From the NCBI GenBank assembly GCA_025450175.1, contig JANWHY010000008.1, forward strand, positions 56,289-120,288: a stretch of 64,000 nt of DNA, in the 5' to 3' direction. The stretch comes from Minisyncoccota bacterium (GTDB lineage Bacteria; Patescibacteriota; Minisyncoccia; Phycocordibacterales; Zambryskibacteraceae). The notes beneath the pieces are model-generated. The model worked only from the letters and a program-made list of their open reading frames with translations. It did not search any database and was not told the DNA's origin. Below are positions 6,970 to 36,995 of this stretch, one piece after another. Position 1 is the first letter of the stretch, and the number at the start of each line of letters is the position of its first letter. The translations under genes were made by a program, and so were the position numbers.

Positions 6970-8334
6970 CTATACAGCCAAGAGATTCCTAATCTGACCA
7001 ATCTCATCGGTCAGGCTCTCATCTTGTTTGATATCTGTTTTTATCTTCTCGCAGGAGTGGATGACGGTCGTGTGGTCTCTTCCTCCAAGCTTTTGTCCTA
7101 TAGATGGGTAAGAAATATTAAAGTCTTCTCTCAATATATACATAATAATTTGCCTCGGACGGATCACTTCCTTATGCCGAGTTTTCTCATAAATACTTTC
7201 TTCCTTAATATTGTAGAAGTCGGAAACAATCTTTACCACATCCTTAACGGCCATGGTTTTCTTGGGCTTAATATTATTTTTTATATAATTACGGGCATCG
7301 AGCATGGAGATCTCCTTGCTTTTGAGCTGAGCTTGGCAGAAGAGGGCGTTCAAAGCACCTTCGAGGTCTCGGATGTTGCCGTTGACCGTGTGGGCCAAGT
7401 AATCTATCACCTCTTCGGCAAGAGCCAGGCCTAGTTGGTTGGCCTTCGCCTTGATAATAGCGATACGTGACTCCTTGTCGGGTATAGGTATATCTACCGT
7501 CATGCCGGCAGAGAGACGAGACTTCAATCTCTCTTCAAGCCCGGTAATAAAGTATGGGTGTTTATCTGAGGAGAAGATGATCTGCCTATTGTTATCGTAA
7601 AGCGTGTTGAAGAGGTGGAAAAGCTCTTCTTGGAACTTCTGCTTATCGGCGAAAAACTGGATGTCGTCGACGATGAGTACGTCGTACTTACGATATTTCT
7701 CCTTAAATATAGCCATTTTCTGGTTCTGAAGGGCGTTCATGCAATCCTGGCCGAACTGCTCGGAGGTCATGTAGTAGACTCTTTTGCCAGGGCTAACGGT
7801 CTTTATGTAGTTACCCACAGCCTGGATGAGGTGAGTCTTCCCGTGGCCTGTGGGGCCATGGATGAAGAGTGGGTTGTACATAATGCCAGGCTTCTTGATA
7901 ACGGCCTGGGCTGCCGCATGAGCAAGCTCATTAAATGGCCCAATTACAAAGGTTTCGAAGGTGTAACGAGGGTTGAGGTTGTCATCTTTATTGACCTGAG
8001 TCTCGGGGAGAGGAAGTTCTCTAGTTTGGAGGTCCTCCTTATGGGTAAGATCCTTCTTACGTGGTCCCTCCTTATTCACAACGTACTCCACAGCATGGAT
8101 TGCGCTATTGAGGTTCCGTAAACTTCGCAAAATTGTGTTGTGGTACTTGGTAAGTAGCCACTCCTTCACAAAAGCATTAGGGACGGAGAGTACGATAACC
8201 CCTCCCTCTTCCTTAACTATCCATGTATCCTTAAACCAGGTTGTGAAGTTGGCGCTGGAGATGCCAAGTTCTATCTCTACTAGTACGCTCTGCCAGAGTT
8301 GCCTGTAATCGCTCATAGGAATAGGTAACATCAT
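6970..8334 (-). CDS. dnaA: chromosomal replication initiator DnaA
   Basis: Walker A GPTGHGKTHL, AAA+ initiator domain, C-terminal DNA-binding signature HTTVIHSCEKI. Confidence 0.95.
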   Translation of the reverse strand: MMLPIPMSDYRQLWQSVLVEIELGISSANFTTWFKDTWIVKEEGGVIVLSVPNAFVKEWLLTKYHNTILRSLRNLNSAIHAVEYVVNKEGPRKKDLTHKEDLQTRELPLPETQVNKDDNLNPRYTFETFVIGPFNELAHAAAQAVIKKPGIMYNPLFIHGPTGHGKTHLIQAVGNYIKTVSPGKRVYYMTSEQFGQDCMNALQNQKMAIFKEKYRKYDVLIVDDIQFFADKQKFQEELFHLFNTLYDNNRQIIFSSDKHPYFITGLEERLKSRLSAGMTVDIPIPDKESRIAIIKAKANQLGLALAEEVIDYLAHTVNGNIRDLEGALNALFCQAQLKSKEISMLDARNYIKNNIKPKKTMAVKDVVKIVSDFYNIKEESIYEKTRHKEVIRPRQIIMYILREDFNISYPSIGQKLGGRDHTTVIHSCEKIKTDIKQDESLTDEIGQIRNLLAV

Positions 8335-8567: not shown

Positions 8568-8819
8568 ATGAGCTATTTCTATTTGCGTACCACTCCAGGC
8601 GAAGAAGTTAAGTTTATTATCTCTGTTTCTAAAAAAGTTTCTAAAAAAGCGGTAATCAGGAACAGAATTCGTAGAAGAGTGCGCCCAATTTTGAAAAAAT
8701 TAGATTTACCCACCAGGAAAGCTACATACTTTGTCGTTGCTAAGCCTGGCGCCGAAGTGATAAAAGGAAAAGAGCTAGAAGCTGAGATTTTAGGGTTAAT
8801 TAGGTCAATTAGAAATTAG
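8568..8819 (+). CDS. rnpA: ribonuclease P protein component
   Basis: Basic RNR motif IRNRIRRRVR, position between rpmH and yidC; short (83 aa). Confidence 0.8.
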   Translation: MSYFYLRTTPGEEVKFIISVSKKVSKKAVIRNRIRRRVRPILKKLDLPTRKATYFVVAKPGAEVIKGKELEAEILGLIRSIRN

Positions 8820-8835: not shown

Positions 8836-9549
8836 ATGTCCTTCCTTTATCACACCTTCTTCTTTGATCCACTTCTTAATATCTTAGTTCTTTTCTTTAA
8901 GACTCTACCCTTCCTTGATGCTGGGGTTATTGTGATCCTCTTCACGATACTTGTGCGTCTACTCATGTTTCCTCTCTCGCGCAAAGCCGTGCATACGCAA
9001 GTGAAGATGGCCGAGATTGGTCCAGATCTGGCACGGATCAAAGAGCAGTATAAAGATAAGATGGAGGAACAAGCCAAAAAAACTCTTGAGCTCTATCAAC
9101 AAAAAGGGGTTAACCCGTTCTCTGGGATTCTCGTGGTGATCATACAGATCCCCATAATCTTCGCTCTTTATCGGATCTTCCTACACTTCCCAGATGTTAA
9201 CCCAGCTTTCTTATATCACTTTGTTACTCAACCCGAACATTTGAATACCACCTTCTTAGGACTCTTTGATCTCACAGAAAAGAGCGTCATCCTTGCGGTA
9301 ATTGCAGCTATCTCTACCTTTTACCAGATTAGAATATCAACTAAGCACGCTCCTAAGCCCGAGAGTAACTCCTTTAGTGATAATCTCACTCGTAATATGC
9401 AAACCCAGATGAAGTACTTCTTCCCTGTGATTGTATTCTTCATCTCCTACTCTATCTCCGGAGCTATTGCACTCTACTGGCTCACTACAAATATCTTTTC
9501 CGCTATTCAAGAAACTTTTGTACGGAGAAGGCTCGCAGTCAAAAGCTAA
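8836..9549 (+). CDS. yidC: membrane protein insertase YidC/Oxa1 (short form)
   Basis: Multi-TM, conserved insertase core around NPFSGILVVIIQIPIIFALY; synteny rpmH-rnpA-yidC. Confidence 0.85.
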   Translation: MSFLYHTFFFDPLLNILVLFFKTLPFLDAGVIVILFTILVRLLMFPLSRKAVHTQVKMAEIGPDLARIKEQYKDKMEEQAKKTLELYQQKGVNPFSGILVVIIQIPIIFALYRIFLHFPDVNPAFLYHFVTQPEHLNTTFLGLFDLTEKSVILAVIAAISTFYQIRISTKHAPKPESNSFSDNLTRNMQTQMKYFFPVIVFFISYSISGAIALYWLTTNIFSAIQETFVRRRLAVKS

Positions 9550-9551: not shown

Positions 9552-10796
9552 CTATTTAAGTCTCAATGCCCAGAGGCTAAGGTCGCGCTTGTTGGTGAAG
9601 ATAAGATATTTTTCTTTTGGAGAAAGTTTGGGGTTAATTAGGTCGATGTCAGTACTTAGTTCTTGTTTGGGTTCTGCGAGAAGTTGAGCAATGTTTGAGG
9701 TAGTCTCAAACCTCCAAATGCGATCCGAGAACAGAGTCTCACCTCGATACCAACTATCCAAATTTTTTGGCACCAGGCCACTATTAGGAGATCCACAATA
9801 AACCACTTCGATTTCTACAGTACTCCAAATACATTTCTCAGCTAGCGTAGCTGAAGAAATTTCGGCATTAACATCTTTCTCTATATTGCGAGCCACTAGG
9901 TGTGTGGTGTTGCCGTCGCTGTAAGAATAGAGGACGCGACTACCAGAACTATTCGGTATTGCTACAAGTCCATTTAGAGGTCCAAGTAGTTTTGAGAGTG
10001 AGCCGCTCGAAGTATTGAGTCGGTACACTACGCCATCCGAGCTACTCTCAGCCTTGGGGTAGATAAGTACAATGTTGCCGCTGGCGGCGAGTCTCCAGTT
10101 GGTAAACTTAGATTCTAAAAGCGTTTTGGTATTGGCTCCGGTGAGAGTAGAGCTAACAATTCTAGCTGTGTCTGTAAGGGAGTAGATTAGAGTGTTGGAG
10201 GTGTCGAGAGCTACGCTACCGATCCGTCCACGGATCGGGGTGGCACTAACTGTATAGAAGTCTGTGGTTGTGCCTTGTTTGGGAGGAGTAAGGGCAATAG
10301 CCAAGTTCTCGATCTCGTCAGACTCGTCTCTAAGCGAGCGGAAAAGTGCTCCCGTACCGTCGTTTCGGAAGTAGGCCTCATAAGTCTTGGGCAAGGTGTT
10401 GTTGGTCAGGCGAGTCTTGGTAAAAGATTGAGAGCTTGTAGATATAGGGAGTACCACTTCATAGATATGCCCAGTTGCTCGCTCTGCGTATCTCACCACC
10501 ACATCGGTTCCTCTCTCGAAAATTACTGAGCCCGCGATAGGAGTATTGGCCAGGCGGAAAATATTTTTAGTTGGAGAGGAGAATTGATCGAATCCTGCCT
10601 CACCATTTTGTCCAGAACCGGACTCGTTCTGGTTCTGGGTTGTAGGAATATTAATATCCTCTCCAGATCCGAAGGGTAAACCATTCTCATCTAGAGAAAC
10701 TATTGGGTCCTCGGGTGTTTGGAAGAAGAAGTACCAAGCTCCTCCCGCAATAATAATGAGGAGTAGAAGGATCAAAATTAAATAAGTCTTTTTCAT
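9552..10796 (-). CDS. bitopic membrane protein, last gene of T4SS-like operon
   Basis: N-terminal TM MKKTYLILILLLLIIIAGGAWYFFF then a large extracytoplasmic S/T-rich domain; 3 nt after preceding gene. Confidence 0.6.
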   Translation of the reverse strand: MKKTYLILILLLLIIIAGGAWYFFFQTPEDPIVSLDENGLPFGSGEDINIPTTQNQNESGSGQNGEAGFDQFSSPTKNIFRLANTPIAGSVIFERGTDVVVRYAERATGHIYEVVLPISTSSQSFTKTRLTNNTLPKTYEAYFRNDGTGALFRSLRDESDEIENLAIALTPPKQGTTTDFYTVSATPIRGRIGSVALDTSNTLIYSLTDTARIVSSTLTGANTKTLLESKFTNWRLAASGNIVLIYPKAESSSDGVVYRLNTSSGSLSKLLGPLNGLVAIPNSSGSRVLYSYSDGNTTHLVARNIEKDVNAEISSATLAEKCIWSTVEIEVVYCGSPNSGLVPKNLDSWYRGETLFSDRIWRFETTSNIAQLLAEPKQELSTDIDLINPKLSPKEKYLIFTNKRDLSLWALRLK

Positions 10797-10799
10797 AAA

Positions 10800-11696
10800 T
10801 TAAAATGAGGCGTGCCAGTGATCATTGGTAGACGCAACTTCTCCCCCACACTTAGAACCTAGTGGTTCCCATAACCAGCGGCCACCTCCTGCTGAATATG
10901 TTTGGCAAGCTGATAGGGGAGCACTATTTGCAACTGTGCTATTTAATCTAATGTCTGAGCGTACATCTACAGCTATACCACTATAATGACTAGAACCTGT
11001 AGTGTGCCCACCCTCTGTGCCAGCAGTAATTACTATAGAACAATTACATGGAGTATTTCTTACAGCGACTAAGCCATTAATTACTGACGGTTGTAGGCCG
11101 TTAAGATTTACACAGTTTCTAGTTTGCCCTTCAATACAAGGTCCTCTGTAAGCACTTATACCAAAGGGTAACGATTGTCTAACTGCTGTATCAGCAGCTA
11201 TTTGTTCAGCTGTCATAGGTACACCTATTGTAGAGGCTCCGGTAGCTGGTGGATTATTAGGAATAGTTTGGCGTTCCAGCGTACTAAGATCGAAGTTAAC
11301 AAAAGGATTCTTATCATTTGGACTAATAGAATAGAGGATGAGCCATGCTCCGATCGCAAGGAGGAGTCCCCAGATAGCATTTGTGATTGTGCCCTTAGCA
11401 TTACCCTTCTCGGTAAAGGCCTCACTCGACATATACTTGATGCCTCCAATAATTATCATGAGCACAGCCAAGACTCCTGCAAGTGCGATGGTGAGCTTGA
11501 AGACTCCTACAAGATAAGCTGAAGCATTAGTCTTACATTCTGTATTGGCGGCACCAGTACATCCGCTTTCTTCCAAAGGAATAGGGGCAAGGAGATTGTA
11601 GTTAGTAGGTTGTGGAGTCTGGGCAAGGGCTCGCTCGGCATTCAGTAAGGATGTCGCACTTACTACTAACAACAAAAATGTAATTATTCTTATCAT
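10800..11696 (-). CDS. membrane-anchored M15/LAS-type peptidoglycan peptidase (VirB1/PrgK functional analogue)
   Basis: Signal peptide, two hydrophobic helices separated by a short loop (VirB2/TrbC-like topology), C-terminal domain with SSHYSGIAVDV (SxHxxGxAxD) and DHWHASF (E/D-x-W-H), the zinc motifs of VanY/M15 peptidases. Confidence 0.55.
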   Translation of the reverse strand: MIRIITFLLLVVSATSLLNAERALAQTPQPTNYNLLAPIPLEESGCTGAANTECKTNASAYLVGVFKLTIALAGVLAVLMIIIGGIKYMSSEAFTEKGNAKGTITNAIWGLLLAIGAWLILYSISPNDKNPFVNFDLSTLERQTIPNNPPATGASTIGVPMTAEQIAADTAVRQSLPFGISAYRGPCIEGQTRNCVNLNGLQPSVINGLVAVRNTPCNCSIVITAGTEGGHTTGSSHYSGIAVDVRSDIRLNSTVANSAPLSACQTYSAGGGRWLWEPLGSKCGGEVASTNDHWHASF

Positions 11697-12382
11697 AACG
11701 ATGGATTGACGCTACTTACATTCTTAAAGTTTATATTGAAGTTAGAGTGAGCATCTTGAGTGACGAGCTTAGAACTTCTTACCCTTAGAGATACTGTAGC
11801 TTCTCCTTCTGTATCCGCGGGGGCGCGATAGGTAACCATCCTAGTCTTACTCGTCTCTCCAGAGTTGGTCGTCCAGTTGTACTCTAGGTTGGAGTTACTA
11901 AAGAAGAGCGGGAAAGCTCCGAAGGTGACTTCTGCCCTCGGGAAGTTGTAGGTCTGTCTGACTGCTTCGTGGAACATGAAGCCATATAGAGGATTATCCT
12001 CAAATATGAGTAAGGAAGGAGCTTTGGGCACTATTATTATAGAGTTACTAGCTGCTACATTTTGCCCCGAGACTATCTCTAATCTAATCTCTTGAGGTCT
12101 TGAGAGGATGGAGTCGGTGTAGCTAATAGAAGAGCGACCAATGCCTGAGGCGTTGCCGAGTACCGTACCATTCCTAATCCAGCGGTAATTGAGGTTACTA
12201 GCACTACCAAGTCCAGTAGGCATAGCGACGAGAGTGATGGTCGATTCCTTAGACCACAGGCTCTTACCTAAGTAGAAGGGGGGTGTGTATGTCTCCCCTT
12301 GCCAGAGGATATCGACACTTTGAGCCCTTAGAAAGATAGGAGTAAGGAACAATAGAGAGAGTATTACAAAGAATTTCATCAT
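11693..12382 (-). CDS. secreted hypothetical protein of T4SS-like operon
   Basis: Cleavable signal peptide MMKFFVILSLLFLTPIFLRAQS; 4-nt overlaps with both neighbours. Confidence 0.6.
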   Translation of the reverse strand: MMKFFVILSLLFLTPIFLRAQSVDILWQGETYTPPFYLGKSLWSKESTITLVAMPTGLGSASNLNYRWIRNGTVLGNASGIGRSSISYTDSILSRPQEIRLEIVSGQNVAASNSIIIVPKAPSLLIFEDNPLYGFMFHEAVRQTYNFPRAEVTFGAFPLFFSNSNLEYNWTTNSGETSKTRMVTYRAPADTEGEATVSLRVRSSKLVTQDAHSNFNINFKNVSSVNPSL

Positions 12383-12735
12383 TTCATTATATCTAATTTT
12401 GTTATGCCTTCTCCAGGGATAACTTTCTTAAGCTTCTTACTCAGAGCCAGGTAACTTACGGCAGCAGTCCAGGCTGGTATTGAGGCAAGGAATGGGACTG
12501 GAATTATTTCTAGAAGAGAGGCCCCACCGAAGGCTAGGATCCTCTTTGGCTTAGTGAAACTTATGTTATAGAACTTAAACCAGACATAGAAAGTGAGTCC
12601 GGCGAAGATCCCCACCACCCATCCCATATAAATAAACCCGAGTAATATCTGGAGGAAGTCAAAGAAGACTGCCACCGCAATCATAAATACTACGGTATGA
12701 GACTTAATCTCCTTTTCTTCTTTATTGCCCCACAT
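12379..12735 (-). CDS. small polytopic membrane protein of T4SS-like operon
   Basis: 3-4 TM helices; track ORF to 12774 overlaps the VirB4 C-terminus, Met at 12735 (MWGNKEE) more plausible. Confidence 0.5.
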   Translation of the reverse strand: MWGNKEEKEIKSHTVVFMIAVAVFFDFLQILLGFIYMGWVVGIFAGLTFYVWFKFYNISFTKPKRILAFGGASLLEIIPVPFLASIPAWTAAVSYLALSKKLKKVIPGEGITKLDIMK

Positions 12736-14602
12736 TTTTAGCTTTGGCCTCTTGCATCTCCTTATATCTCGCAAGTTCTACGGCCTCCTTCTCTGCAATG
12801 GCCTCGCGCTTAGCTTGTTTGATAGCCAAGATCTGTCCAGGATCAGAGGTAATGATCTGGTCTTCGGTGTAGGAGGCAATGTTCTTGATAGCGACGTGCT
12901 TCAGGCCGGCGAAGAAGATGCCCTCACCCACATCGGACTCGAGTAAGAGGTACTTCTCCTCGTCGGTGAGGTTAAAAACCTTCTGCAACTCATCTATAGT
13001 AGTGGGAGATTGCTTGAGAAGCATCTGGATCGAAGAGTTGGTAATAATAGGCACACCATAAGGACTCTTGAGGAAGTCCCCCACATCTTGAGTAATAGTA
13101 GCTACTCCGAGGAAGTATTTGCGACCACGCTTGACGAGGCCCATGAGGAAGGAGGCTGTGTCCTCAGACTTCATCATCCACCAGGCTTCGTCGATGACGA
13201 GTAGGCGCTTCTTAAGATCCTTCCTAATAGCGTTCCAGATAAAGTGGGTCACGATGTACATGGCGATGGGCTTGAGCTCATCTTCCATATCGCGGAGAGA
13301 GAAGACCACAAACTTCTTATTGATATCGACGTTCGAAGGGCGGTTGATGAAGCCGGCCCAAGTACCCTTAGTATATTTAGATAATCTTTGTGCTAGTGAC
13401 TCCCCTCCGGACATGCCTGAGAGCACAAGTTCGAAGTCAGACATGAGTGGAGCTTCGACATTGGTGAAGTCGGAGTCAGCGGTAATATCTTTTAGCGCAT
13501 ATGTCTCGGTGATAGCGCGGTCGATGATGGCATCTTCTTCGGCAGTAAGACCACCCATCATAAGTCGGAAGAGACCTACGAGGTTGATGATGTTAGAACG
13601 GAGGATATTGGCCGCGCTCTCGTCGGGCCCGGGAGGGGCTAGGTCGAATGGGTTTATATGGTGCTCAGAGTTGAGAGAGATGTTGAAGTAGCGGCCACCA
13701 GTGGCATCGGCCATGTACTCATACTCTTTCTCAGGGTCGATGACGATGACCTCAGTATCAAACATTAAGGTACGCAAGATCTCGAGCTTAGTAGCATAAG
13801 ACTTACCAGCACCAGCCTTGGCGAACATTACAGAGTTATAGTTCTCAAGTGAGAAGCGGTCGAAGAGTACTAAGGATGAGTTGTGTCTGTTGATACCGTA
13901 GAGGATACCCTTATCAGAAGTTAGGTCGAAGGAGGTGAATGGAAAGAGTGATGAGAGAGGAGAAGAGTTGAGCTTGGAGTGTACACCGAGGAGGTCGTTG
14001 CCTAAGGGGAGGGTACTCTTATAACCTTGCTCTTGTTGGAAGAGAGCGGGCTTTACGTAAATTAATTTTGCCTCGAGGATTGACTTGATCTCGGACTCCA
14101 CCTTGTCGAGCTCTGCCTCAGACTCTCCATATATAGTCATATATAGACCGACGTCGAAGAGCTTCTCTTGAGCTTGTTGGAGTTGGTCGCGCAAATTCTC
14201 GAGATCTTGGTATGCGATATCGAGCATTGGGTCTCGGACTAAGCCCTTCTCTTCTCGGGAGTGGATCTGAGATTGTACCTCGGCAACCTTCCTCTGGAAT
14301 TGGCGTAGGACGCGCGCTGTCTCAATAGGATGGACGAAGATCGAGACGTCGAAGACCTTGTCCATATTTATAATAGGAGCAAACCAACCTTCTGTAAGAA
14401 AGCGTGGGTAAGAGATGACGAAGAAGGTGCGCAAGATCTTCTCGCCGAGGTTAATCTCCTTGGGGGTGATCTTCAATGCGGAGGGGGCAATGATGTCCTT
14501 AAGCTCCAAGGCGCCGGCCTCGAAAATCTCTTTCGGTAAGATCGAGCTAATATCCTGCTTAGCTTCTCCCTTCTTGCCTAAAATTTTGTCGAAAATTCCC
14601 AT
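12722..14602 (-). CDS. VirB4/TrbE/CagE-family type IV secretion ATPase (ATPase portion)
   Basis: Walker A FAKAGAGKSY, Walker B LLVIDEAWWMM, ~620 aa. Confidence 0.9.
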   Translation of the reverse strand: MGIFDKILGKKGEAKQDISSILPKEIFEAGALELKDIIAPSALKITPKEINLGEKILRTFFVISYPRFLTEGWFAPIINMDKVFDVSIFVHPIETARVLRQFQRKVAEVQSQIHSREEKGLVRDPMLDIAYQDLENLRDQLQQAQEKLFDVGLYMTIYGESEAELDKVESEIKSILEAKLIYVKPALFQQEQGYKSTLPLGNDLLGVHSKLNSSPLSSLFPFTSFDLTSDKGILYGINRHNSSLVLFDRFSLENYNSVMFAKAGAGKSYATKLEILRTLMFDTEVIVIDPEKEYEYMADATGGRYFNISLNSEHHINPFDLAPPGPDESAANILRSNIINLVGLFRLMMGGLTAEEDAIIDRAITETYALKDITADSDFTNVEAPLMSDFELVLSGMSGGESLAQRLSKYTKGTWAGFINRPSNVDINKKFVVFSLRDMEDELKPIAMYIVTHFIWNAIRKDLKKRLLVIDEAWWMMKSEDTASFLMGLVKRGRKYFLGVATITQDVGDFLKSPYGVPIITNSSIQMLLKQSPTTIDELQKVFNLTDEEKYLLLESDVGEGIFFAGLKHVAIKNIASYTEDQIITSDPGQILAIKQAKREAIAEKEAVELARYKEMQEAKAKNVGQ

Positions 14603-14606
14603 AATA

Positions 14607-15263
14607 TTATGCTATCTTTATTGGCTTCTCTGTCTCGCCAGGGTTAAAGGCTTTGTAGAAAAGCTCGATCACTTCTTCTGTACCAAGGCGAGCGACTCGG
14701 ATACCACTTCTTACCAAACCTTGCTCGACCACGGACATGCGCTCTTCGAGCTGGGTGCGGTTCTCATCGAAGCCGCTACTCGAGACTCCCGCGGAGGTCT
14801 CTGTCTTCTTGCCCAGCCCGAATTGCGCCGCGAGACCCTTGAGCCCACTCTCTCCCCCAGTTGAGCCGAGTACTGCCGGGGTATAAGGCACGACGATAAA
14901 GAAGTTCTTGGTCATGATGTTGGTGCTCTCAGTAAAACTTCGTACGAACTCAATATATTCTCGCACTTGGATCTTCATGAGGTTATTGGTTTGGGCCTTC
15001 TCTTGCCCTTCGAGTAGTGCAATGTATGGGCGGATGTCGAGCTTCCGCGACTGGATGACTATCTCTATAGAGAAGTCGAGTGAGTTGAGGAAGTCTTGGA
15101 ACTGGAGGAGGATGGCATTCTTCTCATCCTCAGACTTCAGAGAGAAGTTGAGAGAAGAACACAAGAGGAGAGCACGCATGCTGTCATCCTTGAGTACGAT
15201 GATGCCATCCTTAACCTCTTTTATGGGCACAAACTCTTGAGTTGCGTTAGTTTTCTCAGCCAT
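14607..15263 (-). CDS. hypothetical protein, possibly the detached N-terminal domain of VirB4
   Basis: 218 aa soluble protein ending 4 nt before the VirB4 ATPase start, different frame; 218+626 aa approximates a full-length VirB4. Confidence 0.55.
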   Translation of the reverse strand: MAEKTNATQEFVPIKEVKDGIIVLKDDSMRALLLCSSLNFSLKSEDEKNAILLQFQDFLNSLDFSIEIVIQSRKLDIRPYIALLEGQEKAQTNNLMKIQVREYIEFVRSFTESTNIMTKNFFIVVPYTPAVLGSTGGESGLKGLAAQFGLGKKTETSAGVSSSGFDENRTQLEERMSVVEQGLVRSGIRVARLGTEEVIELFYKAFNPGETEKPIKIA

Positions 15264-15284
15264 TACTTATGATTTTATCACCTT

Positions 15285-15719
15285 TTACTCCGAAATCTTA
15301 TCCTTAGTGACAGGATTTTGATTACTTTGGAGATCTAATTGCCAAGTAAGGTCTTTGAGCTTCGAATCTGAGAGCTTAGGCACGTATACTTGCTCTATGT
15401 CTGCGTCACCTTCTTCTCCTCTAGTTCTTATTACGGTCTTCTCCTCCTTCTTCCAAATATAAAGTTTGTTAGTGGTGTGGAACTTGAGAAAAGCCTCGAC
15501 CATATTAATGAAGGGTTTGTCATTTACCTTGTAGAAAGCTAGGGCTGCACCGAAGAGGATGGCCGGTAAGGCCAAGAGTATAGCTATAAACTTGGGTAGG
15601 ATGAGGAAGAGGACAACAGCCACAGCCACTCCTCCACCCACGTAGATAAACTGTTTAAAGGTCAGTGGACCAAATATCTTATCTTCTACTTCTATAAATT
15701 GTGGTACCTGGAATCTCAT
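15285..15719 (-). CDS. VirB3-like small two-TM protein
   Basis: 144 aa, two adjacent TM helices (GGGVAVAVVLFLILPKFIAILLALPAILFGAALAF), positioned just upstream of VirB4 as VirB3/PrgI-like proteins are. Confidence 0.5.
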   Translation of the reverse strand: MRFQVPQFIEVEDKIFGPLTFKQFIYVGGGVAVAVVLFLILPKFIAILLALPAILFGAALAFYKVNDKPFINMVEAFLKFHTTNKLYIWKKEEKTVIRTRGEEGDADIEQVYVPKLSDSKLKDLTWQLDLQSNQNPVTKDKISE

Positions 15720-16573
15720 GTTTGTTCTCTATAAGGATCTTTGCCTCCCCCATAACGATAATCTGGTAGTGAAACCTTTTCTGCCCCGACGCTTGCGGTC
15801 GGAGTGGGCGCTGGTTGCATAGGTTTGATAACTGCCTCCTTAGATTCTTTGTTGATGATTATAGTGGGTTCAAATGTTTGGGGCTTACTTTCTATCCCTG
15901 TCACATACTGCTTAATACTTATTGGTGGGGGTGGGGTTGCGGGAGTAGGAGTTGGAGCAGCTGTCTTAGGTGGAGTTTGTTGTGTAGGCGTTGGTGTCGG
16001 TAGAGAGGGACTTGTCCCGTACCGAGCTAGCTCTGGTACGGGATGAATCTCTGGGGCTATCTCTAGAGCTTTCCCAGAATTATTTATTTCAGATGATGGG
16101 ATGTATGGTTTCTCCCCCATACTTATCCGCTTTTCTATAAGCTGTTTCATTACATCTTGCTTGGATTCTTTGACAGGAACTGATACTGGCTTTATTGCTG
16201 GTGCTACTTGAGCTGCTCCCGGTATACCTTTTTTGTTTACTTCAATAAAATCTTTTATATCAATGCTGTATTTGCTGAAAACTTTTTCTTCCAAAGTGGA
16301 TCTAAGTACAGAAAGATCTGTGGCATTCTTCCCAATAAGTTTTGCAATATTATTTATTGCATCCCCAAGACTTTGAAGACAATACATAGCGTACAGGATC
16401 TCACTATCTGCAGAATTTGATTGATCATCATTAAGCCCCATTTCTTTCAAGGTTTTAGCGATAAGCTCTGTGGTCTCATTGTCCATTATTAAATCCTGAA
16501 CCTTTGGAGGGAGTTTTTTGTAGGCATTTCTAGTTTGTTCTGATGTGAAAGTCATTTTATGGGAAGCTAGCAA
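15716..16573 (-). CDS. hypothetical protein with Pro/Thr-rich linker
   Basis: TPTPTQQTPPKTAAPTPTPATPPPP low-complexity spacer; translationally coupled within the operon. Confidence 0.55.
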   Translation of the reverse strand: MLASHKMTFTSEQTRNAYKKLPPKVQDLIMDNETTELIAKTLKEMGLNDDQSNSADSEILYAMYCLQSLGDAINNIAKLIGKNATDLSVLRSTLEEKVFSKYSIDIKDFIEVNKKGIPGAAQVAPAIKPVSVPVKESKQDVMKQLIEKRISMGEKPYIPSSEINNSGKALEIAPEIHPVPELARYGTSPSLPTPTPTQQTPPKTAAPTPTPATPPPPISIKQYVTGIESKPQTFEPTIIINKESKEAVIKPMQPAPTPTASVGAEKVSLPDYRYGGGKDPYREQT

Positions 16574-18872
16574 TTCCAGCTGGGCTTAATAGCCATGTAT
16601 GTGTTCTGTGTGTGGCTGGAAGTGTTGCCAGAATGTAAGTACGTAAGGTTGAAACATCCGCTGGGTTCATTTCTGGGGCCATGCGCTTCAATAATTCCGG
16701 AGTATAAGTCTCTGCCATAGTAGGAGTCTGGAGGTCTGTCATATCAAGAGATGCAATCTCTTTATGACCCAATCCTTTTACTATTGTTTGAGCAGTTGCA
16801 ACAGCAGCAACAAACCCGGCAGCGTTACCAGCTGCATGGGCGGTATTACCAGTAGCCAATGCTGTTCTAAGCGGCTGCCTTCTTGCTGTTCGCAAAGCAC
16901 CTTTTTGGCTTGTGGTAAATTTAGTACTCTTGTTTACGGTATCAATTTGGGATGGTTGCATTTGTGATACAAAATCAGCATTTCCTAGATGATCTGGATT
17001 AATCATCTCCAACTCAGTATCAGAGAGCCTTCTAATATTTGCTCGAACACTAGCTGCACCAGGTCCGCCGGGAGCTATAGCAGTATTTATCTCCCCAAAC
17101 CTTCTATTCTTAAGATTATCTTTCTCTGCTTCTGAGAATTTATCACTCTTATTTATAGCATCAAGTTGTTGGACGCTTACTCTATTTGCAAATTCTTGAC
17201 TATTAAGTAGGGAGCGATTGGATTCGACAATAGCCTCTATTTCTTTAGTTGTGGAATTACTAATAGCCTTTTCGAGCTTATTTGCTTGAGGTTGTAGGAC
17301 TGCCAATCTAGCTGTTTGCGCAGCCGTCGGCGTTCCTCCGGCAGCAGTAACTACTGCGTTAATGGTGTCTATTTCCTGGGCCGCAGCGAGATTCCCTTGA
17401 TCTGTGATGGCCAATTCAGCATCAGCTTTCCTGCCTCTCTCTACCCTAGTCTTGCGAGAGTCAGTACCAGGTCTCTCAAGGAATTCTCGGACTGCTTTTC
17501 TTTCTGCCTCAACTCCACCTTGGCCTCCAGCATTTCCCACATCTAGACCGGCCCCACCAAGCATTCCTCCCACCTTGGTTCCTCTAACATCGAATGATCC
17601 TTTTCTAGTTTTGTCTATTGTTGCCAAACTCAAACGAGCAAATGAACTATTTGGAGAGGCGGCCTCCATTCTTTTGTACATCTTACTTTCTTTGAATACT
17701 TCAGCTCCTGCGCCGAGGGTGTATCTACCCGCTCTTCCAGCTAATCCAAATGAAGCCCCACCCGCGGCTCCGGTGGCCCACTTGGTAAGACCAGATACTG
17801 CAGGTCCAGCCATGTTGGAAACATTTTTAGCAATTATTAGTGAGGCGATTAAAAATGCGATAACTATAATAAAGTTCACTAAAATCTGCACAGAACTTTG
17901 AGGTGGAAGATTTACGGCCCCACTAGCAACAGCACTCCCAGCAATTTTTGCCCAATTCTCTGGGTTCGATGGTAGACCCTTTGCGACCACTATGACTACC
18001 CATGTAAGTAGAAAATATATTGGAGCAAAGAATGCTTGACCTAAAAGAGCATTTTGCCACTGGGTTCGATACTTCCCAAGCTCTGGCATTATAAAGCCCA
18101 TAAAAGCTAGTGGAGAAAGAATGATTACAAAAATTAATACCACATAACGAATAATAAACATTATAGAGATAGCAAAGAAGACAAATGCCGCAATCATGGT
18201 GACTATCGTACCCATCACGCCGATGACAAGTAATTGCTTATCGTCAATAGTATCTATTTTCCAGAGATTCTGGAGTCCTAAGGGCTGCATCAAACTATTA
18301 GAAATTCCCCTACTTATATCTAGAGAAAGGGCCCCGGGGGCAATGGCATCATAGAAAGTAATAGCTAAAACATTTGAGGCATCAATTACCACCTTGGTAA
18401 AGAAGAGGCTGAAGTTTATAAGTATGGCAACTACGATAACCTTCATGATTAACTTTTGAGTCTCACCACCCAGACCAAGAATTGTTTTAATAGCGGCATA
18501 GAGAAGTATGAAAATAAAACACATATTCGCGACATCTCTTATTGCTGTCCAAGCCTTATTGATAAAATCTGCACTCGATAAATTATCAGCCATGAGAACC
18601 ACCGTATATTGAGTAACAAAGTTTAAGACAGCTCCACTAAGAAAAGTGAAGTAAGCTCCAATAGTTAGGACTAAAATAGATACATTCCCTAAGGCTTTAG
18701 TTACCCAAGTGATCGGATTAAGTGCGGCGAGTAAGCCACCCTCACTACTAACCGAACCCCAAGCCGTTCCAAGAACTGCCTCCGCGTTTTGAGGCATTAT
18801 TAATAACCCAACTATAAATATAGAGGCTAGTATGGGTAGAAAATTAATTTGTATAAAAATCTTTTTCATCAA
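16557..18872 (-). CDS. VirB6/TrbL-like polytopic membrane protein with long Gly/Ala-rich C-terminal domain
   Basis: Signal peptide plus >=7 TM helices in N-terminal 400 aa, hydrophilic C-terminal ~370 aa; architecture of Gram-positive VirB6 homologues. Confidence 0.6.
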   Translation of the reverse strand: MMKKIFIQINFLPILASIFIVGLLIMPQNAEAVLGTAWGSVSSEGGLLAALNPITWVTKALGNVSILVLTIGAYFTFLSGAVLNFVTQYTVVLMADNLSSADFINKAWTAIRDVANMCFIFILLYAAIKTILGLGGETQKLIMKVIVVAILINFSLFFTKVVIDASNVLAITFYDAIAPGALSLDISRGISNSLMQPLGLQNLWKIDTIDDKQLLVIGVMGTIVTMIAAFVFFAISIMFIIRYVVLIFVIILSPLAFMGFIMPELGKYRTQWQNALLGQAFFAPIYFLLTWVVIVVAKGLPSNPENWAKIAGSAVASGAVNLPPQSSVQILVNFIIVIAFLIASLIIAKNVSNMAGPAVSGLTKWATGAAGGASFGLAGRAGRYTLGAGAEVFKESKMYKRMEAASPNSSFARLSLATIDKTRKGSFDVRGTKVGGMLGGAGLDVGNAGGQGGVEAERKAVREFLERPGTDSRKTRVERGRKADAELAITDQGNLAAAQEIDTINAVVTAAGGTPTAAQTARLAVLQPQANKLEKAISNSTTKEIEAIVESNRSLLNSQEFANRVSVQQLDAINKSDKFSEAEKDNLKNRRFGEINTAIAPGGPGAASVRANIRRLSDTELEMINPDHLGNADFVSQMQPSQIDTVNKSTKFTTSQKGALRTARRQPLRTALATGNTAHAAGNAAGFVAAVATAQTIVKGLGHKEIASLDMTDLQTPTMAETYTPELLKRMAPEMNPADVSTLRTYILATLPATHRTHTWLLSPAGIASFP

Positions 18873-19789
18873 TGGAATAGTCCGTCAGTAGTACTGAATA
18901 CATATTTGTTTAATGCTCCAGTAACAAATGCTTCTACAAGATCTTCTAAGTGCTGGGCACTTACGAATCGATCCATGTTGGCGGGGAGAACATGGTTTAG
19001 CTGCTCTGCTATGACAATGCCAGGAGTTTGTACTGGACCACGCTTGGTACACTCGCCTACGGCCTTACCAGGGACGTGACCATTTCCCCCTACCTGCCCA
19101 CTGACGTTTGTGCCGGCTTCAACCTGTATAGGCGGAGGGTTAGTTTCTAAACACTCTGACCAGCTAAGAAATCCCTGAGCCCAATCAAGTTGCTGACTCT
19201 CTATGCCAATTTGAGTTGCTAGGCGATTATCGAGCTCCACCTTCGCTTCGAGATATGCTCCGTAGGGGTTGTTAGAATTATTTTGAGTCATACTAAACCA
19301 GCCATCCCAACCTCCTTGAGAGAAGTCCCCATAAAATCCTTCTATGTTTCCAACCACATCAGTCAGGGTACATTGGAAACGATTAGGCCTATTGTATTCC
19401 GTCACTAGTGCAAGCCTGATCTGTGCTTGGAAGGGCGAACAAAGGAAACCAAGATCGCTCCCAGCTATGAATTCACCTGCTACCCCATCGGCAATATCTT
19501 GGAAGTATTGTTTGGGGTTAGTAGCATAAGCAGGATTACCCTCGAAGCCAGTGTTGGCCCACTCGACAGTAGAATCCACCATCCGCTGTATAACTGCTTG
19601 GGCAGCCGCTCTGGCAGCAATATCAGCGAAGGTCAAACTAGTTTGAGCAATAACAGAGGCATTAACTGTGGGGTCAAAGACCACTCCTCCAAACAACTGC
19701 GCTTCAGCTCGCGAAGCAAACATGGGCAAGAAGCTCGTCAGAGTGAGAGAGAGTAGGAGAAGTGATGTTGTTAGGTATTTAGAGAACAT
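18869..19789 (-). CDS. secreted hypothetical protein of T4SS-like operon
   Basis: Signal peptide MFSKYLTTSLLLLSLTLTSFLPMFASRAEA; 4-nt overlap with the VirB6-like gene. Confidence 0.6.
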   Translation of the reverse strand: MFSKYLTTSLLLLSLTLTSFLPMFASRAEAQLFGGVVFDPTVNASVIAQTSLTFADIAARAAAQAVIQRMVDSTVEWANTGFEGNPAYATNPKQYFQDIADGVAGEFIAGSDLGFLCSPFQAQIRLALVTEYNRPNRFQCTLTDVVGNIEGFYGDFSQGGWDGWFSMTQNNSNNPYGAYLEAKVELDNRLATQIGIESQQLDWAQGFLSWSECLETNPPPIQVEAGTNVSGQVGGNGHVPGKAVGECTKRGPVQTPGIVIAEQLNHVLPANMDRFVSAQHLEDLVEAFVTGALNKYVFSTTDGLFH

Positions 19790-19790
19790 T

Positions 19791-20567
19791 TTAGTAAGTT
19801 ATATTCCACTTATCCTTTAGATCTTTCTTGATTTCCTCCAAGACCGTTCTTTCTTTCTCCATGTTTTCTTTGAGGGCTATCAATCCGGCTAAAGCTTTCA
19901 TAGGATCAGTTTCCATATCTATATAAGCCTTCATGGCTGCTTGATTAGAGAGATGAAGGTTCACTAACTCTAATTGGAGAGATGAGAAGGATGTGGGCAC
20001 GGGCATACTTTTAAAAGCGGATGCAAGAGTGCTGTAAATTTTTGCGGCACTGTTTACAAACGGAACATAAGAAGTTGTAGAAGGTTGAGGACCAGAAGTG
20101 GTCATTTCTTTAGCAGAATTTATGTAAGCGTTTGAGAGTGCTTTGGAATATGTGACAACACTTTCTTCTGAGTCGTATACGACATTGATATCTAAGATGA
20201 TTGCCTTGGTAAACACGTGACTTCTAAGCGTGGCCTCTACATACTCACTGGCTAGAGTGTCGATAGTTCCTTGGTCGGGAGCGAGACCGCTTGATTCTAA
20301 GTTGAGGTAGCTGAGTAGTAAGTTCCTAGTAATAATATCTGTGCTTGTTAGAGGTTCTGATGGGGGTTGCTTGACCTCCTGGGGCGGGACTTCGTGGGTA
20401 AGAGGTAGGAAACTATTGAGCATGGCTTCCTCTTCGTCTGTTGTCTTAACAGTTTTTATTGCGGCCTCGTTGTAATAGATCTCTTGGGCGGGAGCGAGGC
20501 GATACCAAGAAGCTACTCCTATAAGTAGTATCGATAATGAAAGTGCTAGTCCTAATCTAAGAGACAC
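19791..20567 (-). CDS. bitopic membrane protein, first gene of T4SS-like operon (possible VirB8-like)
   Basis: Single N-terminal TM (LALSLSILLIGVASWY) plus ~230 aa extracytoplasmic domain. Confidence 0.55.
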   Translation of the reverse strand: MSLRLGLALSLSILLIGVASWYRLAPAQEIYYNEAAIKTVKTTDEEEAMLNSFLPLTHEVPPQEVKQPPSEPLTSTDIITRNLLLSYLNLESSGLAPDQGTIDTLASEYVEATLRSHVFTKAIILDINVVYDSEESVVTYSKALSNAYINSAKEMTTSGPQPSTTSYVPFVNSAAKIYSTLASAFKSMPVPTSFSSLQLELVNLHLSNQAAMKAYIDMETDPMKALAGLIALKENMEKERTVLEEIKKDLKDKWNITY

Positions 20568-20626
20568 GTTAACTAAATTATAAGGTACTTATACACAATT
20601 TACACACTATTTTATCAACAGGTGGG

Positions 20627-21415
20627 CTAATTTTTTAGCAATTTTGCCAATTTTTGCCAGATTTCTATACTAAGATCCTCTGCGCGCACGTTTTCATCAA
20701 GCTTAAGCTCCTCAAAAGCTCTTTTGACCTCCTCTTTGGGCAAAATATTGGAGAGATTGGAGGAGAGTTTCTTCCTCTTCGATTTGAAGCCCACATGCAC
20801 CAGGTTGAAGAAATCCTTCTCGCTAAAATTTTGGAAAAAGTTTTTAGAAATGTCTTCGATGAGTAAAATGGCGGAATCTACTTTTGGTGCGGGCACAAAG
20901 GAGCCAGCTAAAACCTTCTCAACATATTGCGGCTTGCTATATGCTTGGACCGAGAGAGATAAAATACTTTGTTTGTTATTTTTTGCTACGACTCTTTCTG
21001 CCACTTCCTTCTGTACTAAGAGCACCATGCGCTCTGGTTGCTTGTCGTTCGATAAAAACCTTTCTAATATCGCTCCGGTGAGGTTGTAGGGGATGTTGGC
21101 GATGAGTTTGTAGGTTCTAGGTTCTAGGTTATAGGTTTTAAAATCAAAATTTAAAATATCCCCATTTCTTAGAATTAATTTTTCCTCTGTAATTTCTCTC
21201 TTAAATTTTGTTTCCAATTCTTTATAGAGATAATCATCCTTTTCTATAGCTAAAAGCTTACAGCCCGTAGCCAAAAGTTTCTCTGTCAGCGCTCCTTGTC
21301 CTGGGCCAATTTCTAACACAAAATCTTCGGGACTAATCTCTCCTACCTCGACTATTCGCTCGAGCGCTCTCTCGCTCTTGAGGAAGTGTTGGCCTAAAGA
21401 TTTTTTAGCGTACAT
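20627..21415 (-). CDS. rsmA: 16S rRNA (adenine1518/1519-N6)-dimethyltransferase
   Basis: KsgA family: N-terminal GQHFL, SAM motif EIGPGQGALT. Confidence 0.9.
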   Translation of the reverse strand: MYAKKSLGQHFLKSERALERIVEVGEISPEDFVLEIGPGQGALTEKLLATGCKLLAIEKDDYLYKELETKFKREITEEKLILRNGDILNFDFKTYNLEPRTYKLIANIPYNLTGAILERFLSNDKQPERMVLLVQKEVAERVVAKNNKQSILSLSVQAYSKPQYVEKVLAGSFVPAPKVDSAILLIEDISKNFFQNFSEKDFFNLVHVGFKSKRKKLSSNLSNILPKEEVKRAFEELKLDENVRAEDLSIEIWQKLAKLLKN

Positions 21416-36782: not shown

Positions 36783-36791
36783 CTTTCATGT

Positions 36792-36863: not shown

Positions 36864-36882
36864 TAGTATCCATTGTAACAGT

Positions 36883-36953: not shown

Positions 36954-36995
36954 ATTAAGGAAGATATTAGCCTAATTTAGCTCGGGATGCTAGAG

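Follow-up and report, generated by a model that had tools for sequence, protein, structure and literature searches.

Why does an operon resembling a type IV secretion system (T4SS) lie amid housekeeping genes beside the replication origin, about 1.2 kb from dnaA, and what might it do there? In the 64-kb stretch of DNA analyzed here (the window), 11 tightly packed minus-strand ORFs occupy positions 9552-20567, flanked by rnpA-yidC/dnaA/dnaN and by ksgA/pcrA; the ORF listing gives exactly the eleven co-directional genes that the first-pass annotation had reported. The source organism is a Zambryskibacteria-like ultrasmall bacterium, a member of the Paceibacteria. We consider it highly probable that the operon encodes the patescibacterial origin-proximal T4SS, related to MPF-FATA systems and serving as an episymbiotic, non-conjugative channel. 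Its features, in gene order, are as follows.

20568-20626, minus strand: 59-nt intergenic region between ksgA and g1, candidate location of the operon promoter
19791-20567, minus strand: g1, first operon gene, bitopic protein of 258 aa with an N-terminal transmembrane (TM) anchor (GTG-start ORF)
18869-19789, minus strand: g2, secreted Cys-containing helical protein of 306 aa
16557-18872, minus strand: g3, VirB6-like polytopic channel/platform protein of 771 aa (VirB6 fold)
15716-16573, minus strand: g4, soluble protein of 285 aa (ORF, no TM segment)
15285-15719, minus strand: g5, PrgI/VirB3-like small membrane protein of 144 aa (Pfam)
14607-15263, minus strand: g6, TrsD-like protein of 218 aa, a detached VirB4 N-terminal domain as its own gene (NCBIfam)
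12722-14602, minus strand: g7, VirB4 ATPase of the CD1110/MPF-FATA type, 626 aa (NCBIfam, Pfam, Walker motifs)
12379-12774, minus strand: g8, small polytopic membrane protein of about 118-131 aa with 3-4 TM segments (TM profile)
11693-12382, minus strand: g9, secreted Ig-like beta-sandwich protein of 229 aa (profile against PDB)
10800-11696, minus strand: g10, VirB2-like T4SS pilin module plus putative zinc peptidase (PF18895, LAS-type signature)
9552-10796, minus strand: g11, last gene, membrane-anchored extracytoplasmic protein of 414 aa, TolB-like beta-propeller (profile against PDB)

One indication of the nature of the system comes from its motor. By profile score, g7 is assigned to the CD1110/MPF-FATA VirB4 family (NF045971 conju_CD1110, E 4e-111, 372.5 bits against a curated cut-off of 325, model positions 183-736 of 752), with further matches to VirB4_plasma, TraC-F and VirB4_CagE in NCBIfam and to P-loop_TraG and AAA_10 in Pfam; Walker A (AKAGAGKS, residue 261) and Walker B (LLVIDE, residue 467) are both intact. 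The NF045971 score above cut-off bears out the earlier call of a VirB4-type rather than FtsK/TraG-like ATPase and rules out an FtsK- or T4CP-like protein. Relatives of g7 are encoded in more than 590 matched stretches of the genome collection, the best 80 loci being 78-90% identical. The model region missing from g7 is found in g6, which the first-pass annotation had not recognized: it matches N-terminal parts of VirB4 models (NF045975 positions 100-233, E 1.4e-12; NF045971 positions 2-115) as well as TrsD/TraD NF041427, and it is present in 46 of 46 loci at a median identity of 62%. Thus, on profile evidence, g7 lacks the N-domain and g6 supplies it, forming a split VirB4 motor. The proposed VirB3-like two-TM protein is g5, identified as PrgI/VirB3 by PF12666 (E 4.4e-13, 50 bits, cut-off 27) and likewise found in all 46 loci (median identity, 54%).

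The platform on which such a motor would act is probably g3, which combines a signal peptide, about six TM helices, a Gly/Ala-rich linker and a helical tail of about 300 aa. Its N-domain has a fold in common with TrwI/VirB6 and DotA, in agreement with the VirB6/TrbL-like protein described before; at the sequence level the VirB6 evidence is weak, with no Pfam match for the window protein and PF04610 matched by only 3 of 44 orthologs.

The gene g10 had been described as a membrane-anchored M15 peptidase, a call that missed that the protein is primarily a VirB2-like pilin. A signal peptide and two TM helices (residues ~28-130) make up a module matching PF18895 T4SS_pilin (27.6 bits, cut-off 26.6), the sole pilin-profile match in the window; the same profile matches 42 of 43 orthologs (TrbC/VirB2 matches 4), and "pilin" is the NCBI name for its homologs. 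The C-terminal domain of about 165 aa carries the LAS-type zinc signature H-x6-D...H-x-H; the ortholog alignment shows no variation at H102, D109, H158 or E93 and conservation of at least 90% at H96 and W159. As the domain has no significant match to the M15 family and retrieves from PDB only Hedgehog N-domains, aligned on the zinc site at a nonsignificant E of ~0.55, the peptidase call rests on the motif. Orthologs exchange this domain for M15_4, 3D or CHAP, and the pilin-hydrolase fusion predominates among 435 representative clusters. A pilin bearing a globular domain of this size may be unable to polymerize, and a true pilus is therefore not assured.

The remaining partners are mostly extracytoplasmic. 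The protein g9, present in all 46 loci, begins with a hydrophobic segment read from sequence as a signal peptide, and its profile matches T4 Hoc Ig-like domains in PDB (E 1.9e-4), with a weak PKD match in Pfam. The gene g11, convergent with yidC and also found in 46 of 46 loci, encodes one N-terminal TM segment; its profile matches 12 TolB sequences in PDB (E 7.8e-4 to 0.023), and orthologs weakly match the propeller families DPPIV_N, PD40 and DUF5050. No assignment was reached for g1, g2, g4 and g8. The fast-evolving g1 has a single N-terminal hydrophobic segment and no match in Pfam, NCBIfam or PDB; its slot holds an ORF of 250-350 aa in 38 loci, and Y87, Y140, P191, H198, N203 and D221-P222 are kept in the alignment. 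In g2, a conserved N-terminal domain of about 280 aa is extended in orthologs by variable adhesin-type C-terminal domains, including discoidin or InlB-repeat domains, making it a candidate distal or adhesive component. The Pro/Thr-linker protein noted previously is g4 (Pro plus Thr, 38% at residues 181-270), which has no match in PDB: a conserved N-terminal domain of about 100 aa and the invariant C-terminal D279-P-Y-R-E283, common to positional orthologs in 44 loci, enclose a hypervariable linker. The slot after VirB4, occupied by g8, holds an ORF of 110-280 aa in 37 loci with conserved D..Q, KR and LPxWT motifs and, for g8, no match in Pfam or NCBIfam.

This composition is not new. The apparatus had been called largely uncharacterized, but as a class it is the subject of Wang et al. 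2023 (PMC10633639), of Quinonero-Coronel et al. 2025 (PMC12102498) and of a review from 2025 (PMC12857230), which cover its origin-proximal position, the TrsD/PrgI/VirB6/VirB2 set, the lack of a relaxase, the finding that Saccharibacteria cannot do without it and the hypothesis of import from the host; a reading as non-conjugative has likewise been published. Across 2,474 patescibacterial virB4 genes, the same component set, dnaA/dnaN/ksgA neighborhood and lack of relaxases were found, in a clade related to monoderm MPF-FATA conjugation machinery (PMC12102498). The operon shares with this Patescibacteria-clade T4SS, including the Southlakia epibionticum system (SEML1_0006-0019), an MPF-FATA-related VirB4 with an adjacent TrsD-like gene, PrgI/VirB3, VirB6, a VirB2-like pilin (PF18895) and the absence of a relaxase or T4CP beside virB4 (PMC12102498, PMC10633639), and with other Paceibacteria and Microgenomatia loci its position adjoining dnaA/dnaN/rnpA/ksgA (PMC12102498). 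In contrast to the arrays of 2-11 pilin genes in Saccharimonadia/Microgenomatia, it has one pilin module, which continues into a LAS-like hydrolase domain as a fusion; the TolB-like g11, the Ig-like g9 and the g1, g2, g4 and g8 families are undescribed in PMC12102498 and PMC10633639. Because this relaxase-less class is already described (2023-2025), the operon illustrates a known system well but does not amount to a discovery; its additions are modest, namely the pilin-hydrolase fusion, the fold assignments and a VirB4 more conserved than DnaA.

Like monoderm MPF-FATA systems (pCF10 Prg/Pcf, pIP501 Tra, pGO1 Trs, C. difficile CTn2 CD1110, the last giving the best VirB4 match), the operon has a PrgI-type VirB3, a VirB6-type polytopic protein and a putative cell-wall hydrolase, a separate TrsD-like N-domain as in pGO1 Trs, and no outer-membrane core parts (VirB7/9/10). 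It differs in that the window holds no relaxase, oriT, T4CP or recognizable VirB8 (PrgL/TraM), in its VirB2-like pilin, which Gram-positive systems lack, in being chromosome-fixed rather than on a mobile element and in a hydrolase not of the SLT/CHAP VirB1 type. The g3 N-domain fold recalls R388 Trw/Agrobacterium VirB (MPF-T) and the Legionella Dot/Icm platform, and the VirB2-like pilin and VirB3-VirB4 pairing suggest the same pilus-assembly logic on a VirB6 platform; unlike in those systems, the envelope is monoderm, no VirB5, B7, B8, B9, B10, B11 or D4 was detected, and g3, unlike TrwI, carries a Gly/Ala-rich and helical tail of ~400 aa.

The genes of the operon are conserved together and are not a chance collection of housekeeping membrane genes: the 11-slot order recurs with VirB4 in about 45 species-representative Paceibacteria genomes, and dnaN-dnaA-yidC-[11 slots]-ksgA-pcrA is kept in 41-46 of 46 species-level loci. 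Median identity is 81% for VirB4 against 61% for DnaA, 47% for DnaN and 46% for YidC, and VirB4 exceeds DnaA in all 46 loci, whereas identity is 29-38% for envelope and extracellular components, a comparison that is biased because the loci were chosen by VirB4 similarity. A conserved VirB4, divergent surface parts and domain swaps in g2 and g10 form a pattern typical of a host-facing machine. A Pfam scan of every window ORF of at least 250 aa assigned most of them, left a few without a match and found no T4CP, relaxase or VirB11, in line with the earlier statement that VirD4, VirB11 and relaxase are missing in or beside the operon; no further VirB4-like protein turned up when the window was searched locally with phmmer, and no integrase was found near the operon. 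The GC content of the operon (0.450) matches that of the rest of the window (0.462). Conserved gene order, flank-like GC and the lack of these genes in the window support a vertically inherited, non-mobile operon.

Taken together, these findings suggest that VirB4, docked on a VirB6 oligomer via the detached N-domain and VirB3, would power assembly of a pilin-based tube or stub that crosses the cell's own wall, where the tethered, putative hydrolase of g10 would open the peptidoglycan; no VirB8-like protein was identified. Fast-evolving secreted proteins may contact the host cell, and the channel would serve the episymbiotic lifestyle, most likely in the uptake of host macromolecules such as nucleic acids, a direction and substrate that we infer. 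Southlakia cannot grow as an epibiont without the homologous cluster, which is independent of ComEC (PMC10633639, PMC12857230); for a cultured member, tubular structures that extend to the host have been reported, as has uptake of host RNA (bioRxiv 10.64898/2026.06.21.733656).

The main alternative to uptake is effector export, in which hydrolases or host-manipulating effectors are injected into or onto the host bacterium with no import. Some T4SSs secrete proteins without a T4CP, among them Ptl and Brucella VirB (cited in PMC12102498 and PMC12857230). For Southlakia, Wang et al. propose that the system "may instead export proteins" (PMC10633639), and the products of the operon include several Sec-dependent secreted proteins as well as a putative wall hydrolase. 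We nevertheless regard export as unlikely. The secreted operon proteins carry ordinary Sec signal peptides and therefore need no T4SS, no candidate effector or secretion signal was identifiable, and a phylum without nucleotide, lipid or amino-acid synthesis, according to the papers cited, favors acquisition.

A T4SS that takes up DNA without a relaxase has a precedent in H. pylori ComB. Like ComB and archaeal Ced, the operon has a VirB4-family ATPase but neither relaxase nor T4CP, and import is the direction proposed for it; the window also holds, as noted previously, ComEC (52957-54447) and a type IV pilus cluster (PilB/PilC/pilins, 42252-46272). That the T4SS takes up environmental DNA and passes it to ComEC for natural transformation is still improbable. 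Homology is limited to VirB4/VirB2/VirB3/VirB6, the ComB-specific VirB7/9/10 parts are absent here, and the NCBIfam match of g7 to CedB, although it counts in favor, is weak, partial and far below cut-off (E 2.3e-9). Competence in Southlakia depends on ComEC, and the review credits type IV pili with it (PMC12857230); comEC deletion is viable while the T4SS is essential, and the essential role therefore does not run via ComEC (PMC10633639, PMC12857230). The earlier proposal of a DNA-uptake or host-interaction apparatus is supported overall, with the correction that cooperation with ComEC is not what makes the homologous Southlakia system essential.

TolB-like propellers act in envelope maintenance, and binding-type extracellular domains (Ig-like, TolB-like, and discoidin or InlB-repeat in orthologs) are consistent with an organelle for attachment or envelope biogenesis only, the VirB2 module and secreted proteins forming a surface fiber or wall-remodeling complex with no translocation. 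We give this little credence, since a VirB4 ATPase that is intact and extremely conserved, together with a VirB6 channel protein, implies energized assembly or translocation; cultured relatives, moreover, already have type IV pili for adhesion (PMC12857230). Bona fide conjugation, whether with a coupling protein, relaxase and oriT at other sites of the genome or as a decaying integrated conjugative element, is very hard to credit. In its favor, the curated family nearest to g7 belongs to conjugation (CD1110, from Clostridioides CTn elements), and most patescibacterial T4CP homologs sit far from virB4 (5,713 VirD4 homologs; PMC12102498). Against it, the operon keeps its housekeeping-gene position in about 45 species with no integrase or compositional shift, and a VirB4 more constrained than DnaA runs counter to decay. 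Only 103 patescibacterial genomes have relaxases, which rarely lie near virB4, and the Southlakia T4CP homolog is nonessential (PMC12102498). The earlier argument against classical conjugation is supported by gene content, the absence of a coupling protein applying to the 64 kb of the window, beyond which a T4CP or relaxase may lie.

Returning to the operon itself, the eleven genes are tightly packed. Overlaps occur at g3/g4 (17 nt), g4/g5, g8/g9 and g9/g10 (4 nt each), g2/g3 (4 nt, or 1 nt with the g3 ATG start of NCBI protein P0121) and g7/g8 (53 nt with the TTG start of g8 at 12774, or 14 nt with its first ATG at 12735), and gaps at g1/g2 (1 nt), g5/g6 (21 nt), g6/g7 (4 nt) and g10/g11 (3 nt); by these measurements the earlier range of 1-17 nt was nearly right, apart from the 21-nt gap and the ambiguous start of g8. 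Translational coupling and a single promoter are suggested by this spacing. A consensus scan of 20568-20626 for a minus-strand promoter gave nothing convincing (none at 9/12 or better), and the same ksgA-g1 gap contains two DnaA-box-like 9-mers, TTATACACA (20589-20597) and TTATCAACA (20612-20620), with one mismatch each.

The operon belongs to a kind of type IV secretion system (T4SS) that is already known, and the window holds a clean, complete Paceibacteria example of it. The eleven-gene, minus-strand arrangement proposed in the first-pass annotation is borne out by the ORF listing, in which 11 co-directional ORFs (here g1 to g11, in order of transcription) span 20567-9552. The spacing of 1-17 nt given there is close for most junctions, but there is one 21-nt gap and the start of g8 is ambiguous: from g1/g2 to g5/g6 the junctions are a gap of 1 nt, overlaps of 4, 17, and 4 nt, and a gap of 21 nt, and from g6/g7 to g10/g11 a gap of 4 nt, an overlap of 53 nt (14 if the first ATG of g8 is used), two overlaps of 4 nt, and a gap of 3 nt. 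GC content is 0.450 in the operon versus 0.462 in the remaining window. The operon is flanked by the following genes:

5662-6765, dnaN, flanking housekeeping gene
6970-8334, dnaA, flanking housekeeping gene
8568-8819, RnpA-like ORF in the flank
8836-9549, yidC, convergent with g11
20627-21415, ksgA, upstream of the operon and on the same strand as it
21429-23381, PcrA/UvrD helicase gene (pcrA), upstream of the operon and on the same strand as it

A promoter scan found no minus-strand promoter upstream of g1, and the scan for promoters and terminators gave a number of sites not above that in shuffled sequence. The 59-nt spacer between ksgA and g1 carries two DnaA-box-like 9-mers (20589-20597 and 20612-20620, one mismatch each), about 12 kb away from dnaA. 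We make no claim that DnaA regulates the operon, since both the window-wide count of such 9-mers (21 versus 13.7 expected) and the orthologous spacers, 4 of 14 of which have one site (3.0 per kb versus a background of 0.44 per kb, uncorrected for AT-richness), are too weak.

Profile matches place g7 (626 aa) among the MPF-FATA-related VirB4 ATPases. With 372.5 bits, it exceeds the curated cut-off (325) of NCBIfam NF045971 ("VirB4-like conjugal transfer ATPase, CD1110 family"), the alignment covering positions 183-736 of the 752 in the model; Mycoplasma-ICE VirB4, TraC-F, and VirB4_CagE match more weakly, and both Walker motifs, A (AKAGAGKS) and B (LLVIDE), are intact. The match above cut-off identifies the ATPase as VirB4, not FtsK- or T4CP-like, the point on which the first-pass annotation had let its T4SS reading hinge. 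Directly upstream, g6 (218 aa), which had been left undescribed, matches N-terminal segments of VirB4 models (NF045975 positions 100-233, E 1.4e-12; NF045971 positions 2-115) as well as TrsD/TraD NF041427; it is therefore TrsD-like, a VirB4 N-domain, and VirB4 is thus encoded here by two separate genes. The proposed VirB3-like protein is g5, a PrgI/VirB3 match (PF12666, 50 bits versus a cut-off of 27).

The third gene, g3, is predicted to encode a polytopic protein with at least five TM helices and a VirB6 fold, since the structure predicted for residues 1-420 from a 107-sequence alignment (pLDDT 84.3) has TrwI/VirB6 as its best Foldseek matches (prob up to 1.00, TM 0.49-0.54). A Gly/Ala-rich linker (residues 351-470) leads into a helical tail of about 300 aa. 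The VirB6/TrbL likeness suggested earlier is thus upheld by the fold but not by Pfam, where g3 had no match, including to TrbL/VirB6 PF04610, and PF04610 matched 3 of 44 orthologues (best E 1.6e-4). A PDB profile search with g3 returned coiled-coil noise from the tail only, and precomputed PF19590 flags on g3 homologues were not reproduced in a Pfam search. When the g3 N-domain and g2 were searched against plasmids by tblastn, there were no matches, or noise only.

The tenth gene, g10, had been described as an M15 peptidase, a label that missed its pilin module. PF18895 (T4SS_pilin) matches g10 above cut-off and is found in 42 of 43 orthologues (TrbC/VirB2 in 4); NCBI labels the homologues "pilin", and g10 is the sole pilin-profile match in the window. 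By these profiles, g10 is primarily a VirB2-like pilin. In its C-terminal ~165 residues, E93, H102, D109, and H158 are invariant in the family, H96 and W159 are conserved at 90% or more, and H160 is mostly H, sometimes D; we take this H-x6-D...H-x-H layout to be that of the LAS zinc peptidases (M15, hedgehog, and lysostaphin families). Nearly all PDB profile matches of the C-domain (E ~0.55) are to Hedgehog N-domains, with the alignment falling exactly on the zinc site, and full-length g10 gave nothing in the same type of search. In neither the window protein nor any of 10 diverse homologues did Pfam place a peptidase on this domain, and Peptidase_M15_4 matched 2 of 43 positional orthologues, at E 0.0018 or weaker. 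An attempted bridge to M15, by phmmer against 1.84 billion proteins and then Pfam on the distant matches, reached no confident peptidase family. The LAS-type zinc signature is thus conserved but comes with no significant M15 match, and the domain is plausibly a putative peptidase whose M15 membership is not demonstrated.

The phmmer search of these 1.84 billion representatives with the C-domain yielded 435 clusters, and a pilin-sized N-terminus precedes the domain in almost all of the 150 clusters listed. In other species, the g10 slot holds a Peptidase_M15_4, 3D, or CHAP domain, or no extra domain; the pilin module thus stays constant as the anchor, and the wall hydrolase attached to it is exchangeable. 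The C-domain (window 10800-11291) has no Pfam family, and a T4SS pilin module precedes it in nearly every case. It is also present in giant surface proteins, namely P0450 (2,193 aa, which has subtilase and PG_binding_1 domains as well) and P0428 (2,412 aa of SdrD_B repeats), the latter matching only the first part of the domain.

Three of the remaining products are likewise extracytoplasmic. The bitopic g11 protein has twelve TolB matches in profile comparison with the PDB (E 7.8e-4 to 0.023), with weak propeller-family matches in its orthologues, and the secreted g9 protein matches Ig-like domains of T4 Hoc (E 1.9e-4). The secreted g2 protein, with conserved cysteines, has 351 homologues, of which those named at source are "hypothetical" with the exception of one "SdrD B-like domain-containing protein"; its predicted structure (pLDDT 73.6) combines a helical bundle and a beta-hairpin and has no specific PDB neighbor, a PDB profile search gave two weak, unrelated matches only, and its orthologues carry C-terminal additions (discoidin, surface-Ig, InlB-repeat, or SdrD domains). 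The bitopic g1, the soluble Pro/Thr-linker protein g4, and the small polytopic membrane protein g8 each have alignable positional orthologues and no family matches, and PDB profile searches with g1 and g4 gave non-significant matches only. In g4 (window 15716-16573), a protein otherwise hypervariable and Pro/Thr-rich, positional orthologues share an N-terminal domain of about 100 aa and an invariant C-terminal DPYRE(P) (residues 279-283); this motif, which has no PDB or Pfam match, looks like a short docking peptide.

A scan of the genome collection with g7 gave at least 600 matching stretches, and 590 of the 600 listed encode a relative. The 80 best-matching loci come from uncultured MAGs, at 78-90% identity, and where their taxon labels are specific rather than a generic "bacterium", all are Patescibacteria (Zambryskibacteria, Taylorbacteria, and Parcubacteria/Paceibacteria). 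Among the 46 loci that are 20 kb or longer, tblastn detected dnaA, yidC, g11, g9, VirB4, TrsD, and PrgI in all 46; dnaN, g3, and g2 in 45; g10 in 43; ksgA in 41; and pcrA in 33. In ORF maps the 11 slots recur, those of the fast-evolving g1, g4, and g8 among them, and about 45 species have identical housekeeping flanks. The synteny comparison that the first-pass annotation had proposed came out in its favor, with synteny holding in 41-46 of the 46 loci. Median identity is 81% for VirB4, 62% for TrsD, 61% for DnaA, and 54% for PrgI; it is 47% for DnaN, 46% for YidC, 48% for KsgA, and 54% for PcrA among the flanking housekeeping proteins, and 38% for g10, 35% for g2, 32% for g3, 31% for g9, and 29% for g11. 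VirB4 identity exceeds DnaA identity in all 46 loci, a contrast somewhat inflated by selection of the loci on VirB4 similarity; the lowest VirB4 identity (79%) is accompanied by DnaA at 56-60%. The cytoplasmic motor is ultra-conserved, and the surface parts diverge rapidly and swap domains, a pattern compatible with vertical inheritance of the machine and an outer face that tracks different hosts.

This class of apparatus, which the first-pass annotation had called largely uncharacterised, has been described (PMC10633639, PMC12102498, PMC12857230). The "apparent T4SS" of Southlakia epibionticum, of the Saccharibacteria (SEML1_0006-0019), was essential for epibiotic growth by Tn-seq; it is closest to Gram-positive conjugative systems and has pilins, with recognisable coupling and relaxase proteins absent (Wang et al. 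2023, PMC10633639). In a survey of 2,474 patescibacterial virB4 genes, these formed a monophyletic clade related to MPF-FATA, with TrsD, PrgI/VirB3, VirB6, and VirB2-like pilins widespread nearby, dnaA, dnaN, rnpA, and ksgA in the neighborhood in Paceibacteria and Microgenomatia, relaxases in 103 genomes only, and T4CP homologues mostly far from virB4; import of DNA or other host macromolecules was proposed (Quinonero-Coronel et al. 2025, PMC12102498). A 2025 review repeats this picture (PMC12857230), and a 2026 preprint describes, in a cultured member, tubular structures that extend to the host as well as uptake of host RNA (10.64898/2026.06.21.733656). None of these four sources mentions M15, TolB, or a pilin-hydrolase fusion. 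The window shares with this clade an MPF-FATA-related VirB4, a virB4-adjacent TrsD-like gene, PrgI/VirB3, VirB6, and a VirB2-like pilin, as well as a chromosomal location near dnaA/dnaN/ksgA with no relaxase or coupling protein beside virB4.

As to what the system carries, we somewhat favor import of host macromolecules over export of effectors, because the auxotrophies of the phylum and the Southlakia and OT8 data point to import. A ComB-like role in competence is less likely. The ComEC/type IV pilus context noted earlier is indeed present in the window and speaks for it, but cells that lose comEC stay viable and lose only competence, so that the essential role of the T4SS does not run via ComEC (PMC12857230). 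A purely adhesive role is also less likely; Ig-like g9 and the binding domains added to g2 orthologues stand beside an intact VirB4 motor. Conjugation is likewise among the less likely rivals, despite the relation of VirB4 to conjugal transfer ATPases. A Pfam scan of every window ORF of at least 250 aa, most of which were assigned and a few of which had no match, found no T4CP, relaxase, or VirB11 in the 64 kb, and the sole T2SSE ATPase of the window adjoins PilC and pilins; the absence of these parts, as claimed earlier, holds for the window and reaches no further. Local searches found no second VirB4-like protein or second pilin in the window, nor was any VirB8-like protein recognised. Synteny and composition led us to reject an ICE remnant or prophage-like element, as the operon lacks an integrase, a variable insertion site, and atypical composition, and the conservation of motor relative to surface argues against a decaying mobile element. 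The reading of a T4SS-like, non-conjugative host-interaction apparatus is thus supported, with corrections as to TrsD, the g10 pilin, the M15 label, and the scope of the T4CP search.

In the R388 architecture, VirB2 is recruited on a VirB6 platform, and VirB4 is the motor. By analogy, g5, g6, and g7 would dock on a g3 oligomer, this platform would handle the g10 pilin module, and the g10 hydrolase domain would open peptidoglycan; g2, g9, and g11 may form or decorate the part that spans the wall and contacts the host, and the resulting channel would support the episymbiotic lifestyle. A more specific Paceibacteria variant can be formulated, which we regard as improbable: the sole VirB2-like pilin would be tethered to a LAS-type wall peptidase, so that the fibre carries the drill, and g2 would be a VirB5-equivalent tip adhesin on VirB6 with a swappable C-terminal binding domain, forming with the Ig-like and TolB-like partners a host-wall-piercing conduit that imports host RNA/DNA. 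If true, such a conduit would account for VirB4 being more conserved than DnaA.

A large share of bacterial diversity belongs to Patescibacteria, which apparently live off host cells. Their relaxase-less, origin-proximal T4SS, essential in the one species tested, is currently the leading candidate for a conduit between symbiont and host. Our analysis leaves the published picture unchanged and opens no new question. Its additions are modest: a per-gene parts list of the Zambryskibacteria-type operon, support for VirB6 from a predicted structure, recognition that the pilin-hydrolase fusion family is widespread (the 435 representative clusters), TolB-like and Ig-like partners, and a quantified contrast between an ultra-conserved motor and fast-evolving, domain-swapping extracellular parts.

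Elsewhere in the window, we noted the following features:

23632-24546, opposite strand to pcrA and just past it, LysM-LysM-Peptidase_M23 wall hydrolase
24550-26085, ComM/Mg-chelatase-like AAA+ protein (YifB family)
36790-37329, both strands, compact cluster of six tRNA genes
42252-46272, PilB/PilC/pilin cluster
52957-54447, plus strand, ComEC (Competence/DUF4131 membrane part)
54392-54994, minus strand, 200-aa ORF
55018-55875, plus strand, metallo-beta-lactamase domain

The LysM-M23 hydrolase lies near the operon in 10 of 46 related loci and could be an accessory hydrolase, as some VirB1-like proteins have M23 and LysM domains (PMC12102498). ComEC appears split into its membrane part and the metallo-beta-lactamase domain, as separate ORFs with the 200-aa ORF between them. 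The YifB-family protein, of a family often linked to competence, is encoded ~4 kb upstream of the operon. Rfam matches in the window are tRNAs only, and the six tRNA genes include three tandem tRNA-Pro (CGG, GGG, and UGG) and two tRNA-Gly.
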